Positions 48,802-59,520 of a stretch of 64,000 nt of DNA are shown piece after piece. Source of the DNA: a virus; UHGV virus genome UHGV-1353844. One strand, written 5' to 3'. How positions within the stretch are numbered: position 1 is the first letter of the stretch; the number at the start of each line of letters is the position of its first letter. The notes beneath the pieces are model-generated. The model searched no databases, was not told the DNA's origin, and saw only the letters and a program-made list of their open reading frames with translations. Position numbers and translations under genes: made by a program.

Positions 48802-48960
48802 TAATATTTATTTCATTCCGTTCTGAGAAAGCGTTGTCCCTGTAAGATGCGTAATAACGATCTTAACAGGCAATAGACGCTAACACCACCACACCAGTGA
48901 TGTCTTCTGAAAGTGTCGGTAGCTCGCGAATGCGTACCTTTCCTACCAGTTCAGCCACTA

Positions 48961-50136: not shown

Positions 50137-50919
50137 TTAAACACGTGAACCATATATTGCACCTACTGCGTCCCATCTTGGCGCATTACCTCTAACGGCT
50201 GCACCAGCGGCTCCGCCGTTATATTCTGTACCGTTACCATGAGTATTACATCTTCCTCCAGCAGCACCGACATTACCACCCGAACCGCCTGTATATGCAC
50301 TAAGAGACCCCTCACCAACAGATCCTCTACCAGGAGCGGAAATAGTACCAGCAGCTGCACCGGAACTCATATGTGAGGAAGACCCACCAGCACCGAATGG
50401 GCGACCACCGCCACCACCAAATATTAGTCTACCCCTGTTACCGCCGCCACCGCCGCCACCGCCTCCGGCAATAGCGCCACGGTTGGTTATACGCAGTCTG
50501 TTTCCTATTCCGTTCTGTATTGCGGTTCCACCTGCACCGCCTGGTGAGTTAGAACCGCCGTTGCCTCCTCTGCCGTATACTGTAACCCCAGGATTGATGA
50601 TGAGTGTAATATACGAATTTGGAAGATTGCTAGGGAATTCTAAACAAGGAACCCCGCTACTATAAGACACTAAATCCCCTGTAATGGTCACAACGACAGC
50701 ATTAGAGCCTATAGAACGTAAATAGTTAATAAGCGTATCTTTATTGTAATTGTGATTAGCCCCGATCGAATACTGAACCTCTTTTGATTTTCCCGCCAAT
50801 TGCGACATCCAGCCTGGAACCGGCACACCAAGTGTGCGCATCGCGCCAGACATCCAATCGTTACCAGTTTCAGCTTTTGCTGAAGAACCAATCCAACCAC
50901 CTACGCCGACAACTGCCAT
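50137..50919 (-). CDS. gp38-like tail-fibre adhesin (T2-type, glycine-rich motifs)
   Basis: N-terminus MAVVGVGGWIGSSAKAETGNDWMS… and poly-Gly tracts (GGGGGGGGGN, GGGGGRPFGAGGSS) typical of T2/T6-type gp38; immediately downstream of the long tail fibre gene (TAATG overlap). Confidence 0.55.
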   Translation of the reverse strand: MAVVGVGGWIGSSAKAETGNDWMSGAMRTLGVPVPGWMSQLAGKSKEVQYSIGANHNYNKDTLINYLRSIGSNAVVVTITGDLVSYSSGVPCLEFPSNLPNSYITLIINPGVTVYGRGGNGGSNSPGGAGGTAIQNGIGNRLRITNRGAIAGGGGGGGGGNRGRLIFGGGGGRPFGAGGSSSHMSSGAAAGTISAPGRGSVGEGSLSAYTGGSGGNVGAAGGRCNTHGNGTEYNGGAAGAAVRGNAPRWDAVGAIYGSRV

Positions 50920-53900
50920 TAGGATCTTCCTTTAATTTCGTTAACCTCTTGACGCAACGCTTTCATACCCTCTACTAACAGCGCAATAACGCCATTGTAG
51001 TTTAGACGTAAACGTTTTTCGCCTGAAATGGCATCATCATCCTCAGACACAAGTTCAGGTAACGCTTCTAATGCGTCTTGAGCAATTAGACCTACCGAAG
51101 TGTTCCAACCGTCGTCTGGATGTTGAACCTCGTACAGATAGCCGGTAAGCGCTTCTAACCGATCCAAAGCCTTATCCAGCTTCACCAGATTACGTTTGTT
51201 GCGACGGTCAGAACGAATCTGTACGTCGTTAAACGAACCGTTACCGTTGCTAGAAATGTTATGACCAAAGGTTACTTGACCGTTAGAGTTATTAAAATAC
51301 AACGGACGTAGTCCGTTCCAGGAACCCGTTGCGGCTTGTCCGGAGTCGGTTACTAAGAAATAGGTATTGGCACCATCATTACGTAAAATGAAACCGCAGC
51401 TACCGTAAGCGATTCGGAAATCAGCATACTTCGTAACCAGTTTACCGTTAACCGTTAAATCGCCAGTGACAGTACCGCCGCTGTTCTTCAAAAACAGCGC
51501 ATCAATCCAGCCTGCAAATCCTGACTTATTGATGTATAAATTTCCATCATTTGCCAGAATGCCGCCACCCGGCGTCTTGAGAGGCTGACTCACATTTTGC
51601 AGCGTCAGCACACCATTCAATTGACCGCCAGATAATGGCAACGCCCCAACATCCGCAGCAGTTGGCTTGTTTTTCGTATTGTAAGCGCGACGCCAACCTG
51701 GTGAGTAAGCATCACCGTTATTTACGTAGATAAACTCCGCATTAGTGAGTGCGCCGCCGACGCTCGTCGTTGTGGGGGTCGTTATACGGATCGTGTAGTT
51801 GTTTGCGCTGTTACTAATCACTTCTATAACAGCCCCAGCTAACGGAATAACACCACAACCCGTCTCGCTGTTCGGTATGGACGCACTAGCAGCATAAGCC
51901 CATGCACAGCGAGCAACCCATGATTTTGTGGTAAACGCGCCGTTATTTTGCAATAACGTCACTAGCTGTGCTGTAGTTATTGCGCCGCCGTCTTTACCAG
52001 TCTCCAACCAACCAGTGGGCGAAGCCGGACAACCTATATCGGCAGGCCCTAACGATATATTTCTAGTACCGTCAAATGCGATACCGTTAATGGTACGCGC
52101 TGTCTGCAACTTTGTTGCCGTGGCTGCGTTTCCGGTAGTCGACTGATTACCCGTCTGGTTTACACCGGGCAGACTAATGTCTTGCGAACCGTCAAAGTTA
52201 ACACCGCCGATCTTACGTGCTGTTTGTAACTTAGTAGCGGTCGCTGCATTACCTGTCGTATTCTGGTTGCCTTGCTGGTTAACCCCCGGTAAATTGATAT
52301 CCCCAGTACCGTCAAAGGTAACGCCGCCGATTCTGCGAGCGGTTTTCAGTTTCGTCGCGGTAGCGGCATTGCCAGTAGTATCCTGATTACCGGTGGTATT
52401 TACACCAGGAATACTGTCACGGGCAGTATAAACTTGTGCCCAATCTGACCACGGCGCATCAGCCGTATCGCGTCGACTACGAATATAAACGGGTGCGTGT
52501 GCACCACTCGTGCCCGACCAACCAATTAACAACTCACCTTCGCCTAGCGCATTAGCACCACCTAAGTGCAGCAAGTTACCATAGGCGGTTGGATAACCGT
52601 TATTGTAAACTTCGTACATCTGGATACCAGGTGTACCCTTGTTCGACCCGGTCAGAGCGGTAACCCGTCCACGACCTACCAAGGTGTTGATATTGATGTC
52701 TCCAGAGCCATCGAATTTCACACCGTTAATATTTCTGGCGGTTTGAAGTTTAGTGGCTGTCGCGGCGTTACCTGTGGTGTTTTGATTACCTTGTTGGTTA
52801 ACACCTGGGAGGTTAACGTCGCCGCTGCCGTCGAAAGCGACCCCGCCAATTCTACGCGCAGTCTGGAGCTTAGTGGCGGTTGAAGCATTGCCGGTTAACT
52901 CACCTGCTAACCCTTTTGCAAAGGTCTGTTTCTCTGCCCAAGTGTGGGCTGCGTTCAACACAGGCATCTGTCGTGGCGTAATCGTACGGCTACCCTTCTC
53001 GCCAGCGATACGTACTGCAAAGAAGCGATAGTTAGCAGTAGACACTGTACCGCGCCAGACCAACATACTCCGACCAGTACCGGTGTCCTCTGACGCCCCT
53101 ACGAGAATACTGACCAAGTTACCGTCAATAACACCCCAATCCATTCCCGCAGGAATGTTTTTCATGGTATTCAACGGTGTACTTATCATCTGGCCAGGAA
53201 CGAAATCGAAGGTTTGCCAGTCTAACGGATCGACCTTGGCAGCAACCCCACCGATCCCTAAAGCCAACGGGAGTGAATAGGATGTGAAAATCTCTCGCCA
53301 TTCGCTCCAGGCGTTTCCTGTACGAATTCGTTGGAACTTGCGACCTTTCGTAGTTGCGCCTGTACCGTATGTGGTATAATTTTGTTCAACGCCTGAACCG
53401 TCTAAGCGTAAGGTAACTTCGCAAACACCTAACAAGGTTGCGCCAGCAGAGTCTGTTAACGGACCGTCAGTAGCCTCACCGGTAACACTAAAACGACCAG
53501 GTTTAGTTAAGTCATTAAAGCTACCCTTATAGTAGGCACCGTCTACCTGATACCCAACTTGAATCCAATCTTCCCACTGTGGATTAGACGCATCCCAAGT
53601 CGCAGTCAACCCACGGACATACATCGTACCACGACGAGTGGTGTAACGTTGCATACGTCCGTAGAGACCACCTTCCATTACTTCTAATACACCTTGAGCA
53701 TTACCACCTTCTTCGGGATAATGACGATCGAACGTCGCAAGAGAAGAACTGGAGTTACGCCACTGACCCATGTGTTCAACACCACCTAAAGTGTTAAGGT
53801 CAATAGTGGTGGAGAGCGGACGGTTCGCGGTAGTTGTCATTCTCCAGGGCGACCAAGGGCCGTTAGTACCGTTCCAGGTTCCTGTTAAACGACGAGTATA

Positions 53901-55385
53901 GACGTTACCGTTACGTATGGTAAAACGTTGGCTTCCGCTGTAGTTACCTGCTTTGAATACCTCTAAGTAACCAACTGCATCGTCTTCCGGGAAGTTCTTT
54001 GCAATTGTTGCATTCGTAGACGTGGCTTTAGACCAGACACCCATAAACGCTTCGACTGGGCCGAAGGTGTTGATATCCGCATCTACTGCCATTTCCCCAT
54101 TAAACTTCAAATACGTCTCTGCTGACAACCCGATGTTCTTCGCGAAGGTGACTTTATCTGGAATATCGGCACCGTTAGAACTGCGTTGCATAGCACCCGC
54201 AGCTTTATCAACAGTGGTTTTCAAACCCAGGAAGTTAATGATATCTGCCGTCGACCCTTTCGCTAACAAATCACGCGCAGTCGAGGTGAAATCCGCTAAC
54301 CCTACCTGATTACTACCGGTAAAGTAAGGGAGTTTGTTTGCAGCGGTGGTGACTGCGGCAATCGCTGTCAGTAACGGACTTAACGGCTGTTTACCCGCGA
54401 GTTGGTTCGTCATCGTTGTCGCAAAGTTAGGATCGTTTCCTAACGCAGCTGCAATTTCTGATAACGTATCTAACGTCTCGGGTGAAGAGTCCACTAATTC
54501 AGCAATCGCTTGCCGTACCCATGCGGTCGTTGAGACGCTCGTGTCGTTAGAATCCGAAGCAGGTGTTGGTGCTTTTACCACACCGGTAAAAGTTGGGTTG
54601 TGACGGTTTGCTTTTAACTGCAAATCTTCATTTAACTGCTTAACCGTTGACGGCGTAGCCGCTTCAGTAACAGAGTCACTGCTTAAGGTATTATTAAGTC
54701 TAACGATACCTTTACTGGTCGTTGTTGCATCAACGTTACCTTTTGCAGCGATTTCTTCTGCACGCTTAGCCGCTGCCTCAGAACGCGTTGCCGCATTCTC
54801 TGCGGTTTCTTTGTCTGTGGTAACTTGCGTTGCTGTAGCTTCTACAGCGGCTTTTGACGACTCTACCGACGCGACAGCTTCGTTAACTGCCGTAAGCGAC
54901 TGTTCGACTTGACCGGCTTGTGTGGCAACAGTTTCTGCTTTCTTCGTAACGGTAGTCACCGCTTGTGTGACGTTGGCCTCGCTTGCCGCTACCGCTTGCG
55001 CTTTCTCATTAACGGACACAACCTGGGTATCTACCGCCGTTTTCGCGGCTAACACTTCAGTGTGTTTTGTACCGACTTCAGTTGCTTTTTCGGTTACAGT
55101 TTGCGCTTGTTGAGCAACTGTAGCCGCAACGGTGTCAGTTTGTTGTTTTGCTGTTTCTGCTAAATTCTTTGCTTGTGTAGCCTGAGTTGCAGCTTCTTGT
55201 GATTGTGTTGCTGCTGTTTGTGCATCAGACACCGCATTACGTACGGTGTCAATATCTGCAACGATCTCACGGACAGGTAACTTATAATCTTTCTCATCCT
55301 TGGAAAAAAGTAAAACACCTTCACCTATATCCCCGGTGTATGGACGTAAATCGTGTAAACGAATTTTCTTTACCGCTTTAGCCAT
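50919..55385 (-). CDS. long tail fibre protein with C-terminal intramolecular chaperone (peptidase S74) domain
   Basis: 1488 aa: N-terminal anchor, Ala/Thr/Gln-rich coiled coil, six Phage_fiber_2-type repeats (TGNAATATKLQTAR-I-G--FDGS), C-terminal SDRRNKRNL…GLIAQDALEALPELV matching auto-cleaving chaperone domain. Confidence 0.75.
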   Translation of the reverse strand: MAKAVKKIRLHDLRPYTGDIGEGVLLFSKDEKDYKLPVREIVADIDTVRNAVSDAQTAATQSQEAATQATQAKNLAETAKQQTDTVAATVAQQAQTVTEKATEVGTKHTEVLAAKTAVDTQVVSVNEKAQAVAASEANVTQAVTTVTKKAETVATQAGQVEQSLTAVNEAVASVESSKAAVEATATQVTTDKETAENAATRSEAAAKRAEEIAAKGNVDATTTSKGIVRLNNTLSSDSVTEAATPSTVKQLNEDLQLKANRHNPTFTGVVKAPTPASDSNDTSVSTTAWVRQAIAELVDSSPETLDTLSEIAAALGNDPNFATTMTNQLAGKQPLSPLLTAIAAVTTAANKLPYFTGSNQVGLADFTSTARDLLAKGSTADIINFLGLKTTVDKAAGAMQRSSNGADIPDKVTFAKNIGLSAETYLKFNGEMAVDADINTFGPVEAFMGVWSKATSTNATIAKNFPEDDAVGYLEVFKAGNYSGSQRFTIRNGNVYTRRLTGTWNGTNGPWSPWRMTTTANRPLSTTIDLNTLGGVEHMGQWRNSSSSLATFDRHYPEEGGNAQGVLEVMEGGLYGRMQRYTTRRGTMYVRGLTATWDASNPQWEDWIQVGYQVDGAYYKGSFNDLTKPGRFSVTGEATDGPLTDSAGATLLGVCEVTLRLDGSGVEQNYTTYGTGATTKGRKFQRIRTGNAWSEWREIFTSYSLPLALGIGGVAAKVDPLDWQTFDFVPGQMISTPLNTMKNIPAGMDWGVIDGNLVSILVGASEDTGTGRSMLVWRGTVSTANYRFFAVRIAGEKGSRTITPRQMPVLNAAHTWAEKQTFAKGLAGELTGNASTATKLQTARRIGGVAFDGSGDVNLPGVNQQGNQNTTGNAATATKLQTARNINGVKFDGSGDININTLVGRGRVTALTGSNKGTPGIQMYEVYNNGYPTAYGNLLHLGGANALGEGELLIGWSGTSGAHAPVYIRSRRDTADAPWSDWAQVYTARDSIPGVNTTGNQDTTGNAATATKLKTARRIGGVTFDGTGDINLPGVNQQGNQNTTGNAATATKLQTARKIGGVNFDGSQDISLPGVNQTGNQSTTGNAATATKLQTARTINGIAFDGTRNISLGPADIGCPASPTGWLETGKDGGAITTAQLVTLLQNNGAFTTKSWVARCAWAYAASASIPNSETGCGVIPLAGAVIEVISNSANNYTIRITTPTTTSVGGALTNAEFIYVNNGDAYSPGWRRAYNTKNKPTAADVGALPLSGGQLNGVLTLQNVSQPLKTPGGGILANDGNLYINKSGFAGWIDALFLKNSGGTVTGDLTVNGKLVTKYADFRIAYGSCGFILRNDGANTYFLVTDSGQAATGSWNGLRPLYFNNSNGQVTFGHNISSNGNGSFNDVQIRSDRRNKRNLVKLDKALDRLEALTGYLYEVQHPDDGWNTSVGLIAQDALEALPELVSEDDDAISGEKRLRLNYNGVIALLVEGMKALRQEVNEIKGRS

Positions 55386-55417: not shown

Positions 55418-55444
55418 CTGGGGGAGGTAAAGCACCTCCCCCAA
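55418..55444 (-). terminator. hairpin between 1001-aa gene and long tail fibre gene (possible partial terminator)
   Basis: TGGGGGAGGT-AAAGC-ACCTCCCCCA; weak T-run on minus strand. Confidence 0.35.
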
Positions 55445-55463: not shown

Positions 55464-58400
55464 TTATTGCTCCGGTTTTAATGGAACATCTTCTATCGTT
55501 AACGTAACGTCTAAGACCGCTTGACTGTGGTCAGTAATCGCTAAGTCACGATAAATATTAGCGTTGGGTCCGTAGGTTTTATAAGTAACGTAGAGACCTA
55601 ACGCACGTAGCACTTCTCCAGTGTAGAACCCATAAGCCATTCCGTTATCAGAAGACTCTCGAGCGGCTGGAGACCACGCTCCATTAATCGGCTTATTCGG
55701 AATTGAGGTAATCGTAAACCCTTCACCTAACTCCTTAATTGCCGCATTAACCACTTTTTCGTAGTTCGGATTCGTTGCACCGGCGAGTAATGCCCAGCAA
55801 CACCCTGCTAACCACAACCCACACATATGTGCGGTGAAGTCGTTTTCCACCCAAACAGCTTTATCCGGTGCTGTAGGGAACTCGTTAGGAGTGTGGCCGT
55901 TAAACCGATCCACAAACCCACCTAGCCAATTCACCCAGTTGTCAATATAGGTTGTTAACGCCTCGGGAACGTCTTTACCTCGCAGTTTCAGTTCGTACCA
56001 ACACCGACACGCAGCATGAAACGCGCGAGGCTGATACCCTGCCCAAGGATGGTCATCACCCCAATGGAACGTCGTCCAGGTATCCGCTTCTCCGTAGCTG
56101 TAGTTGTCCCAACGGTTCCAGATATAAGCTGCGCAACCAGGTCCTAATTCCCCAATTTGCTGTTGGTAAGCCAACTGCGAATCGTGCAGGAATTGAATCT
56201 GGTTATCTAACCACAACTTATACCGGTCGTCTTTGTGGATACTGTACATAAACGGATACTGATAACCTGGATAAGGCATCCCGTGCCAAGCACCTAACTG
56301 TTCTGAACCTTCTAAGTAGCTGTTCGTGAACGGTATCGTACCCGGACAGTACGCTAACGAATCCAATCGGTAATCTACAATCGTACAATCACCCACCTTT
56401 GCATCAAACTCTGCACCACCGCGTAAGGCAATACGGAAGGTTAAAATATAACCATCGTCTTTATTAAAGACCGGTGGGACATCGTTAACACAATAGTAAG
56501 CAAAGTGTGCATGGTCAACTGTGGAGTCAGGAAGAATCGTGACCTGATCCACCTTATCGAAATTCGGTGCTGAAGGTTTAGGGTCAGCGTCTGTGTGGTC
56601 TGGCTGATAACCGGAAAGTGTGGCTTCATCCGGATTCAACGTTACCTGACGCCATTCGTTGTTTGTGTTGGGTAACATCCACCACCAAAGCCAGTTATCA
56701 CTGTCGACTAAACGCAAGTTAAAATCTGCGTCTGCACGGTAAACAATAGAAACGGGTTTTACCTTCTCTTCAGCGGTTAACCAAAACCCGATAATAAACC
56801 CGGCACTGTCATCAGGAAATTCCGCTTCTACCACGGTACCCGCGCGACCATCGTAAATGCTATCCTCAAAACGTTCTTCCCACGTACAACCACCGTAGTC
56901 CGAACACGCACGGGCTTCAGCTATCAGGTAGTCTCCCCCTTCTGGGGTGGTAATACGGGAAAGTTGGCCTAAGTCAACATCGTACTGTTTAACGGTATTT
57001 ACCGTAGACCGAGGTAAGGTTAAACCGTACCAGTTTACCTCCTCGGTATCAGCTTTCGCAGGGTTAATGTTCACCATCACTTTACAGTAGACAGGATCGC
57101 CATTCTTACAAACTCCACCGTACGTGACACGTAGTTTAGAGTCTTTGTTAATCCTGAACCTAACCGCTTTTTGCTCCATAAAGTGCTGCGCCGCTTCAGG
57201 CACGTGGATGGTAATGTCTCCATTCTCATCACGGCCGTAGGTGGCACTTACGGTATCTGGGTAATCGAAATCGTACGAAATACCGTCAGTAAACGGTGTA
57301 TCCGCAGCGGTAGAACGACGGAAGAATTTATCTGTCGCATCAATATACGTGTACTCATGTGCGGTGTAGAAAGCACAGTCTAATGCTTGTTTGTATTTCT
57401 CTTCACCTGTGATTCGCCACAGCAAATAACAGGCGTCGATAAACCACAGTTCAGCATCAGCGGCGTTACCGTATTGGTTTTTCGACCCTAAGAACGGTGT
57501 GTGGACCGGACGGTTGTGCCACGGCTCATTACGTTTAAATTCGTAACCGCCGTGTTCGACAGGAAGTTTTACCGCGTAGTTAATTAAATAGACACCGTTT
57601 AACTGTGTGTCTTTTAACTGTACGGTACCTTTATCAGCGTCTGCTAATCCCGTCTCAATAATTTCACCATCCTGGATTTTGTTACCCGTCCAGGCAATTA
57701 TCCAGTCAACGTCGTGTTTAGGAGCTTTTGTTGCAGAGCCGCCCCAAAGCGGGGTGTAACCTGTAGTATTATTTAGCAGTGTTGGCCAATCGACCCAAGC
57801 TGTGCTTTCGTAAGGCTTATCAGGATTAGTAATAACGTGAGTTAAAACGTCTTCCCAATTAATCGACCCTTCTTTGTCTTCCTTGATAATCTGTACATCT
57901 GCGTTAATCGCGGCCCAGGCAGGGTGGCCACGATATGCAAACGTACAGATATCCAAATACTCTCCCCAGAAAGGTGCACCGTGCGGTATCTTACATTGGC
58001 CATTTGTAAACCTTACAGGAACACATTTATACCCGCCGTTGGTAGGTTCCGTAGGGTGAATAGGATAGTGTGCTAATACCGGTTCTTTCCCGTTTACTAA
58101 CCAGTTACAAATCCGACGCTGGGGTGTTGTCGGAATAGGCTGTCCGGCGTAGAAGTACGTGTTGTACGCATCCCAGGCGTGTTTCGCAGCATCTAACCAT
58201 CTTTCGTCTTTTGTTGCGATATACATGTGGCAATAACCGATAATGTGTAACGACTGACCCTCGGTCGTTGCGTCACCGTTCGGTTGGTATTCCGCCATGG
58301 TATCAGCGATGAAATGACGGTTATTCGACAGAACACCTTCTTCGTTTTGAATGTAATGATCGATATGTGCGTCGTTAGTCGTTCCCGTATTCCGGGTAAC

Positions 58401-58469
58401 GAAGGATTGGTGACCGTAAGCTAACGATAACGCGTAGCTAATCGCGTGACGCTGAAAATGTTTTCTCAT
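55464..58469 (-). CDS. large Trp/aromatic-rich protein (1001 aa), putative receptor-binding enzyme (tailspike/depolymerase-like)
   Basis: Start codon immediately follows stop of the small anchor-bearing gene (TAAATG); function inferred only from context and composition. Confidence 0.4.
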   Translation of the reverse strand: MRKHFQRHAISYALSLAYGHQSFVTRNTGTTNDAHIDHYIQNEEGVLSNNRHFIADTMAEYQPNGDATTEGQSLHIIGYCHMYIATKDERWLDAAKHAWDAYNTYFYAGQPIPTTPQRRICNWLVNGKEPVLAHYPIHPTEPTNGGYKCVPVRFTNGQCKIPHGAPFWGEYLDICTFAYRGHPAWAAINADVQIIKEDKEGSINWEDVLTHVITNPDKPYESTAWVDWPTLLNNTTGYTPLWGGSATKAPKHDVDWIIAWTGNKIQDGEIIETGLADADKGTVQLKDTQLNGVYLINYAVKLPVEHGGYEFKRNEPWHNRPVHTPFLGSKNQYGNAADAELWFIDACYLLWRITGEEKYKQALDCAFYTAHEYTYIDATDKFFRRSTAADTPFTDGISYDFDYPDTVSATYGRDENGDITIHVPEAAQHFMEQKAVRFRINKDSKLRVTYGGVCKNGDPVYCKVMVNINPAKADTEEVNWYGLTLPRSTVNTVKQYDVDLGQLSRITTPEGGDYLIAEARACSDYGGCTWEERFEDSIYDGRAGTVVEAEFPDDSAGFIIGFWLTAEEKVKPVSIVYRADADFNLRLVDSDNWLWWWMLPNTNNEWRQVTLNPDEATLSGYQPDHTDADPKPSAPNFDKVDQVTILPDSTVDHAHFAYYCVNDVPPVFNKDDGYILTFRIALRGGAEFDAKVGDCTIVDYRLDSLAYCPGTIPFTNSYLEGSEQLGAWHGMPYPGYQYPFMYSIHKDDRYKLWLDNQIQFLHDSQLAYQQQIGELGPGCAAYIWNRWDNYSYGEADTWTTFHWGDDHPWAGYQPRAFHAACRCWYELKLRGKDVPEALTTYIDNWVNWLGGFVDRFNGHTPNEFPTAPDKAVWVENDFTAHMCGLWLAGCCWALLAGATNPNYEKVVNAAIKELGEGFTITSIPNKPINGAWSPAARESSDNGMAYGFYTGEVLRALGLYVTYKTYGPNANIYRDLAITDHSQAVLDVTLTIEDVPLKPEQ

Positions 58470-58934
58470 TTAGTAACCCGCTGCAAGAAGAGAACCTTTC
58501 CAAGTGGCACCCCCGTCAAGGGTATAAAGCGACAGAGTGTCTTCCGCATTTGCCGTGTAGGATAAAACCGGTTTTGCACCGTGAGGCCACTTAACGTTTT
58601 CAGGCCAGGTTACTTTATTCGCCCCTGTTCCCTGCTTAAACGTTAGCATTACTTCGAAACGGGTATTTTCCGCAACGTTAGTAAGGGCTGCGAACGTCAC
58701 CGTAGTAGTGGGATCGTTTAACACCAGAATAATGTCAGTGCTGGTATTGAAATCCAACGTGGCGGCATTATTCGAACCGTTAACCGTGGTGACTGTCGCA
58801 ACCGGGGCTAACTTATCAACATCAATTTTATATTCTTTATTGTCTTTGCTATACAGCAGTACCCCGCCCTGCGGTGTGCCTGCGTAGCTTTCGAGCTCAT
58901 GGAGTCTCGTCTTCTTCAGTGCTGTCGCCATCTG
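58470..58934 (-). CDS. small protein with N-terminal long-tail-fibre-like anchor
   Basis: Start set to ATG at 58934 (GAGG SD): MATALKKTRLHELESYAGTPQGGVLLYSKDNKEYKIDV parallels fibre N-terminus MAKAVKKIRLHDLRPYTGDIGEGVLLFSKDEKDYKLPV. Confidence 0.45.
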   Translation of the reverse strand, partial: QMATALKKTRLHELESYAGTPQGGVLLYSKDNKEYKIDVDKLAPVATVTTVNGSNNAATLDFNTSTDIILVLNDPTTTVTFAALTNVAENTRFEVMLTFKQGTGANKVTWPENVKWPHGAKPVLSYTANAEDTLSLYTLDGGATWKGSLLAAGY

Positions 58935-59460
58935 TAACCTCGAATGTAAGAACGGCATTGTCACCAATACAGAAGATTGCATCTTCTTCGTTTGCTAATG
59001 CCCGTTCGGTTGTATCAAACAACGTCACCATAAACGCGTTCATCCACGCAGGAGAATCGTCGGCAACGTTAACGGAAATGGGATCGTTACCTAAAGTGAT
59101 ATCTGAAGCACGTAAATCCTCGGGTTGTAAGTTCGTTCCGCAGAATTCATTTACAACACTAAGAATGTCACGAACGTTGTCTTCAGTACCGTCTAACGAA
59201 ATCAGAATGGGTTCATACGTTAATACTTCATCTGCGTCGAGTCTGTCGTAATAAACCACAACAGACGCACCATCTGGTTTTCTGATTTTACTGATTTCGG
59301 TAATGGTGTTACGACGCGAAGTTGTTGGAGATGAGTTTGTTACGGTCCCGCTAATACGTATTTCGTTTAGCGTAAGCTGTAACCCATTATCGTGATTGAT
59401 TAAAGCGACCACTAGCTCTGCTGAGGTCAGACTCAAATCAGGTACGTATGGTGTGGCCAC
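58897..59460 (-). CDS. hypothetical protein, paralog of 48961..49473
   Basis: 187 aa; GTG start with GGAGGG SD; acidic C-terminal tail. Confidence 0.45.
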   Translation of the reverse strand: MATPYVPDLSLTSAELVVALINHDNGLQLTLNEIRISGTVTNSSPTTSRRNTITEISKIRKPDGASVVVYYDRLDADEVLTYEPILISLDGTEDNVRDILSVVNEFCGTNLQPEDLRASDITLGNDPISVNVADDSPAWMNAFMVTLFDTTERALANEEDAIFCIGDNAVLTFEVTDGDSTEEDETP

Positions 59461-59474
59461 TTAACCCTCCGAGA

Positions 59475-59520
59475 TCAAAAAAAAATAAAACACCTACCGC
59501 CCATAGAATCGGGCGGTAGG
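59475..59520 (-). terminator. rho-independent terminator (minus strand)
   Basis: CCTACCGCCC-ATAGAATC-GGGCGGTAGG hairpin followed on minus strand by GTTTTATTTTTTTTTG. Confidence 0.6.

Follow-up and report, generated by a model that had tools for sequence, protein, structure and literature searches.

A putative two-gene tail appendage with a fibre-like adaptor and a glycosidase-like toroid head in an SPN3US/Asesino-like jumbo myovirus

The locus described here lies on the minus strand of a 64,000-nucleotide stretch of the virus genome UHGV-1353844, hereafter the window, whose source is an SPN3US/Asesino-like jumbo myovirus. It begins with a gene (58897..59460) for a 187 aa DUF7941 protein (PF25613, E=7.6e-20), the orthologue of SPN3US gp122, which overlaps by 35 nt with the gene for a small protein of 153 aa (58470..58931) assigned to PHROG 9017, 'tail fiber protein'. 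The third gene (55464..58469) encodes a large tail protein of 1001 aa that belongs to PHROG 2871, and the order DUF7941-small-large is common to SPN3US, Asesino and the close relative L007. The initial annotation placed the start of the small ORF at 58934, one codon too far, and counted 154 residues; the evidence favours a start at the ATG at 58931, which has a GAGG ribosome binding site 6 nt upstream, and a gene caller applied to a close relative likewise gives 153 aa. The abutting stop and start codons were read correctly, as the junction runs ...GGTTAC TAA ATG AGA..., with the stop of the small gene at 58472-58470 and the ATG of the large gene at 58469. A fusion of the two proteins by read-through of the in-frame TAA was considered and rejected, because the frame of the junction varies in relatives, where the two genes are separated by 1 nt or overlap by 1-44 nt. 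Terminator-like hairpins on the minus strand bracket the three-gene unit, one upstream of it (59493..59520) and one with a 12-bp stem at its end (55418..55444). A scan of the locus for sigma-70 promoters was set aside because it showed no enrichment over shuffles and because these phages use their own RNA polymerases. The neighbour of the pair is the gene for a long tail fibre (LTF) of 1488 aa (50919-55385, minus strand) with Gp34_trimer and Peptidase_S74 domains.

The small protein matches phrog_9017 over residues 1-153 (E=4.7e-39) and is 46-47% identical to SPN3US gp123 (47%) and Asesino gp140. It is also the orthologue of phi92 gp140 and rV5 gp43, and SE13 gp30 was confirmed to be a further member of the family. 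Its AF2 model (pLDDT 83.9) can be divided into two parts, both encoded on the minus strand. Residues 1-45 (58797..58931), referred to here as the anchor, are homologous to the N-terminus of the LTF and form a lower-confidence segment with a β-hairpin at 24-37. Residues 46-153 (58473..58796) form a β-sandwich of about 100 aa that carries the C-terminal QGTGANK...W-P...P-LSY...D...W-G motif of PHROG 9017-type adaptors and is the proposed docking domain for the large protein. Across the family the β-sandwich is conserved while the N-terminus varies by lineage, the modules found there including PF18668 (TSP1/Gp66 tail-spike N domain) and PF08400. A swappable N-terminus ahead of a conserved C-terminal domain supports, as judged from sequence, a role in attachment. 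The C-terminal domain is also found at the tip of a 1086 aa fibre family. The 'BNR/sialidase' label attached to some orthologues was traced to one motif resembling an Asp-box (Pfam BNR E=0.07) and rejected as a sign of sialidase activity.

The large protein matches phrog_2871 over residues 6-983 (E=0, 1457 bits) and is the orthologue of SPN3US gp124, phi92 gp141 and rV5 gp42. It shares 71% identity with SPN3US gp124 and 76% with Asesino gp141, and over more than 950 residues 41% with Bas62_0025 and 29% with JES2013 ORF41. Its richness in aromatic residues, noticed in the initial annotation, amounts to 3.6% Trp and 6.1% Tyr. The AF2 model (pLDDT 90.6) contains a six-hairpin (α/α)6 toroid, and every one of its best fold matches is to a glycoside hydrolase, with coverage that is nearly complete, which agrees with the enzymatic or binding head that had been suggested. 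As modelled, the protein is a compact globular, single-chain toroid and not a fibre or β-helix spike. Membership of a curated glycoside hydrolase (GH) family was not found at the sequence level in CAZy or Pfam; the lone GH match in Pfam is the sub-threshold Glyco_hydro_76 at aa 49-109 (18 bits against a cut-off of 25.9). A search of NCBIfam gave no match, and sequence searches of PDB chains with both proteins and with a 61-sequence profile of the large protein returned nothing meaningful.

Two insertions of about 220 and 360 residues split the toroid into three segments, all encoded on the minus strand. Segment N (aa 1-110; 58140..58469) comprises helices 2-26, 69-86 and 89-106 and carries E70, Q72 and H52, and segment M (aa 335-380; 57330..57467) comprises helices 337-354 and 357-375 together with a GNAADAE motif that includes D338 and E340. 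Segment C (aa 739-970; 55560..56255), delimited by helices and conservation, contains helices 751-772, 812-829, 836-855, 880-895, 902-917 and 947-966 and the residues W784, R786, D788, W809, R815 and E952. Conservation of the protein peaks in the toroid segments, with 32% of the columns of segment N and 39% of those of segment M at least 90% conserved. The insertions were delimited with DSSP. The β-rich insertion A (aa 111-334; 57468..58139, minus strand) is the site of an extra insertion of about 167 aa in Kolesnikvirus homologues. The β-sandwich insertion B (aa 381-738; 56256..57329, minus strand) is the least conserved part of the protein, with a minimum at 421-540. Its residues 488-667 match phrog_23426, which corresponds to the distal region of Omen_030, a different tail protein that carries an anchor itself, and its Foldseek matches are SGBP-B, tandem CBM22 and jelly-rolls.

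A candidate active site emerges from 20 deep homologues of 26-37% identity, in which E70 (18/20), Q72 (20/20), D338 (18/20) and E340 (15/20) are kept; R815, E952 and W784 are also kept at this distance. E70 and D338 are both located at helix N-termini. Two of the homologues, P0279 and P0287, jointly lack E70, D338, R815, E952, H52, W123, R786, Y733, Y736, D788 and W809. To the extent that an alignment can tell, such a joint loss of pocket residues is the pattern of an active site, in which E70 and D338 are probably the candidate catalytic carboxylate pair. The GNAADAE motif (334-340) may resemble the GH8 PROSITE signature A-[ST]-D-[AG]-D, a likeness on which the assignment does not rely. The large protein might instead be a non-catalytic structural or lectin-like part of the tail, still held by the small adaptor, whose toroid has been kept as a scaffold or as a glycan pocket. 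This is unlikely, if worth keeping in mind, given that glycoside hydrolases alone make up the best fold matches, that invariant carboxylates at helix N-termini belong to a pocket lost jointly in only 2 of the 20 deep homologues, and that earlier HHpred-based annotations name orthologues glycosidase or hydrolase. No experimental report of glycosidic-bond cleavage by any family member was found in the literature searched. A glycan-cleaving toroid is the preferred reading.

The pair is found in about 520-540 phage genomes, and the small and large proteins show near-identical host-genus distributions (539 versus 518 phage records). By HMMER the family of the large protein is restricted to 254 clusters at 50% identity and showed no link to any cellular GH family; Sf14 has no homologue of the large protein. 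The small gene lies directly upstream of the large one in all 11 loci examined, which were drawn from jumbo, rV5-like, phi92-like, FelixO1-like and Rosemountvirus myoviruses, SU10-like and other podoviruses and a Pseudomonas prophage, and the junctions range from -44 to +3 nt. In Rosemountvirus the pair adjoins neck/connector genes and not baseplate genes, and therefore the attachment site may differ between phages. Orthologues of both proteins have been recovered from virions, as the initial description of the pair as tail components implied. In SPN3US gp124 (SC/M 0.64) and gp123 (0.42) are low-copy proteins, neither of which is flagged as a head protein, gp42 and gp43 have been detected in rV5 virions, and S144 virions contain ORF17 and ORF16 (probably the small-protein orthologue).

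It is improbable that the small protein stands by itself as a short fibre or spike and that the large protein attaches alone, the two being merely co-transcribed. Such an arrangement would fit with the prediction by others that phi92 gp140 alone forms a fibre-like trimer, with the finding that natural small-large fusions are missing among the 120 closest homologues of the large protein, and with the ability of large homologues to bear anchoring domains of their own. Some of these carry the podophage fibre-tail adaptor gp77 domain, and in a V-W-J-I gene order a large homologue without a small partner has a P2 gpI baseplate domain joined to it. However, the only gpI fusion that was inspected is preceded immediately by a baseplate J gene and not by a member of the small family, and from these sequences it appears that large proteins with no small partner have a covalent anchor instead. 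Moreover, adjacency and coupled junctions persist in 11/11 loci across unrelated tail types, the small protein is conserved only in its C-terminal domain, its N-terminus being different from one tail type to another, and no attachment domain can be recognised in the large protein of the window itself.

The likeness between the N-termini of the small protein and the LTF, on which the initial annotation rested its proposal of a common anchor, is significant. BLASTP aligns them with 26/50 identical residues (E=8e-12), and an ungapped comparison of the first 40 residues gives 22 identities, a number reached in 0/100,000 shuffles. The copy in the LTF spans aa 1-45 (55251..55385, minus strand). Used as tblastn queries, the 48-aa N-termini detect just two anchor copies in the window; a third, truncated copy at 48958 surfaced with a relative's protein as the query. 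It belongs to the remnant of a third anchor-bearing gene (48863..48958, minus strand), which has 31 codons before a stop and is intact (206 aa) in L007, a phage with three anchor copies. One or two other genes of the window phage and L007 thus carry the anchor as well, and an attachment module common to an adaptor and another fibre, as seen in branched receptor-binding complexes, is present in the window. The same plug on two proteins raises the question of how the sockets are occupied. An N-terminus common to the small protein and an adjacent fibre is also seen in rV5-like and FelixO1-like phages: in the rV5-like JES2013 the small protein is 38% identical over 99 aa to the downstream 1272-aa fibre (E=5e-19), and in Omen it shares its N-terminus with the upstream tail protein (E=3e-13). 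Together with the swappable N-terminal domain and the invariant adjacency, this supports the view that the small protein supplies the attachment domain. In SPN3US-like genomes a 48-aa anchor query finds one place per genome, and no second anchor-bearing protein was detected in SPN3US and Asesino; therefore a 'shared socket' is not required for the module to function.

Recombination could also have created the likeness as a scar of the gain of the fibre cassette, in which case the docking sites of the two proteins would differ. SPN3US, Asesino and Proteus phage 7 lack the cassette at this site, and the LTF is a mosaic: residues 1-218 have no database match except the anchor, and after them come a P2 gpH-like collar and distal parts that are T4-like. 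This origin is nevertheless very improbable, as a fibre needs an attachment domain and the anchor is the only candidate at the N-terminus of the LTF. Furthermore, the window and L007 show 96-99% conservation in the anchor block whereas the fibre segments downstream of it diverge, and rV5-like phages, whose anchor is of an unrelated type, independently have the order of small gene, large gene and anchor-sharing fibre. Nor is the small protein at all likely to be an assembly chaperone for the large one, as its size, its position directly upstream and the translational coupling typical of fibre-chaperone gene pairs might suggest, since purified SPN3US, rV5 and probably S144 virions contain its orthologues, and it carries tail-spike-type N-domains and an anchor common to a structural fibre.

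The pair is the orthologue of a module that has already been noticed, and the result from the window is mostly confirmatory. SPN3US gp123/gp124 and Asesino gp140/gp141 (Seoulvirus/Erskinevirus) are direct orthologues in the same gene order, but unlike the window they have no long fibre/gp38 cassette after the large gene. The same pair is found inside the baseplate gene cluster of phi92 (gp140/gp141, assigned as small and large by gene order and the LL12 paper) and the phi92-like Bas62 (0024/0025). Compared with the window, the large protein of this type is 41% and the small C-terminal domain 40% identical, whereas the small N-terminus is different, and the phi92-type locus yielded no anchor match to any neighbouring gene. 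Bas62_0025 is annotated as a 'lateral tail fiber protein with several glycosidase domains', and gp141 is listed as a putative glycosidase, an assignment reported to come from the original phi92 paper (Schwarzer 2012). The 2026 cryo-EM maps of phi92 do not place gp140/gp141 and leave fibre II unassigned, gp141 not having been considered. In rV5 (Vequintavirus) gp43, gp42 and gp41 are the small protein, the large protein and a long fibre ending in a Peptidase_S74 chaperone domain, and as in the window the small protein and the fibre have an N-terminus in common. However, rV5 uses as its anchor a tail-spike N-domain of the P22/TSP1-Gp66 type (PF18668), which has no relation to the 45 residues that form the anchor of the window, and the large proteins are only about 28% identical. 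Adaptor-plus-enzyme or branched receptor-binding complexes are also known from K1E/K1-5, where a scaffold protein is combined with an endosialidase, the CBA120 TSP network, G7C gp66/gp63.1 and the Klebsiella anchor-branch systems. Their heads are trimeric β-helix or β-propeller tailspikes for variable capsule or O-antigen, whereas the head in the window is a single-chain (α/α)6 toroid with β-sandwich insertions that is highly conserved across hosts. GH8, GH76, GH88/GH105 and GH48 share its toroid fold at about 10% identity.

It is proposed, with somewhat better than even confidence, that the two genes encode a co-translated tail appendage composed of a fibre-like adaptor and a glycosidase-like toroid head that is likely to cleave glycans. 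The first 45 or so residues of the small protein would act as a lineage-specific plug into a socket at the tail or baseplate periphery, with the LTF of the same phage bearing a copy of that plug, and the C-terminal β-sandwich would bind and hold the large protein at a presumed docking site and in a presumed stoichiometry. The large protein would provide a GH8/GH76/GH88/GH105-type toroid with two β-rich insertions, at least one of which appears portable and is probably glycan-binding. A pocket built from all three toroid segments, with E70 and D338 surrounded by H52, W123, Y733, Y736, R786, D788, W809, R815 and E952, would most likely bind and cleave a surface glycan at adsorption, both catalysis and substrate being predictions. 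In a comparison with L007, identity is 96.7% for the small and 93.5% for the large protein of the window, with uniform conservation, as against 79.4% for the LTF, which includes one block at 25%. As the pair is conserved across many Gram-negative hosts while the LTF diversifies, its target is more likely to be a glycan conserved in the envelope or matrix than an O-antigen or capsule particular to one strain. The suggestion in the initial annotation of a second receptor-binding complex that shares the anchor of the LTF is supported, but a pair so much more conserved than the LTF is unlikely to determine host range as receptor-binding complexes usually do.

Tentatively, the two genes may form a 'plug-in glycosidase cartridge' that moves horizontally and fits any tail type by anchor swapping, its head representing an unclassified phage-specific (α/α)6 GH family whose substrate would be a glycan that many Gram-negative envelopes or biofilm matrices have in common. 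If true, the cartridge would span jumbo, rV5-like, FelixO1-like and P2-like myoviruses as well as podoviruses, and the club-shaped complex would be a candidate for tail densities that fibre models do not explain, such as 'fibre II' of phi92. The module occurs in more than 500 sequenced phages, among them therapeutic candidates, of the rV5-, phi92-, SPN3US- and Rosemountvirus-like groups. For these the analysis offers a confident fold, a candidate site at E70/D338 with its co-lost residues, a division into anchor, docking domain and head, and a complex to fit into unassigned baseplate densities. If a conserved glycan is indeed the target, this would help to explain how broad-host-range phages pass surface polysaccharides, and the large protein may be a broad-spectrum glycanase.

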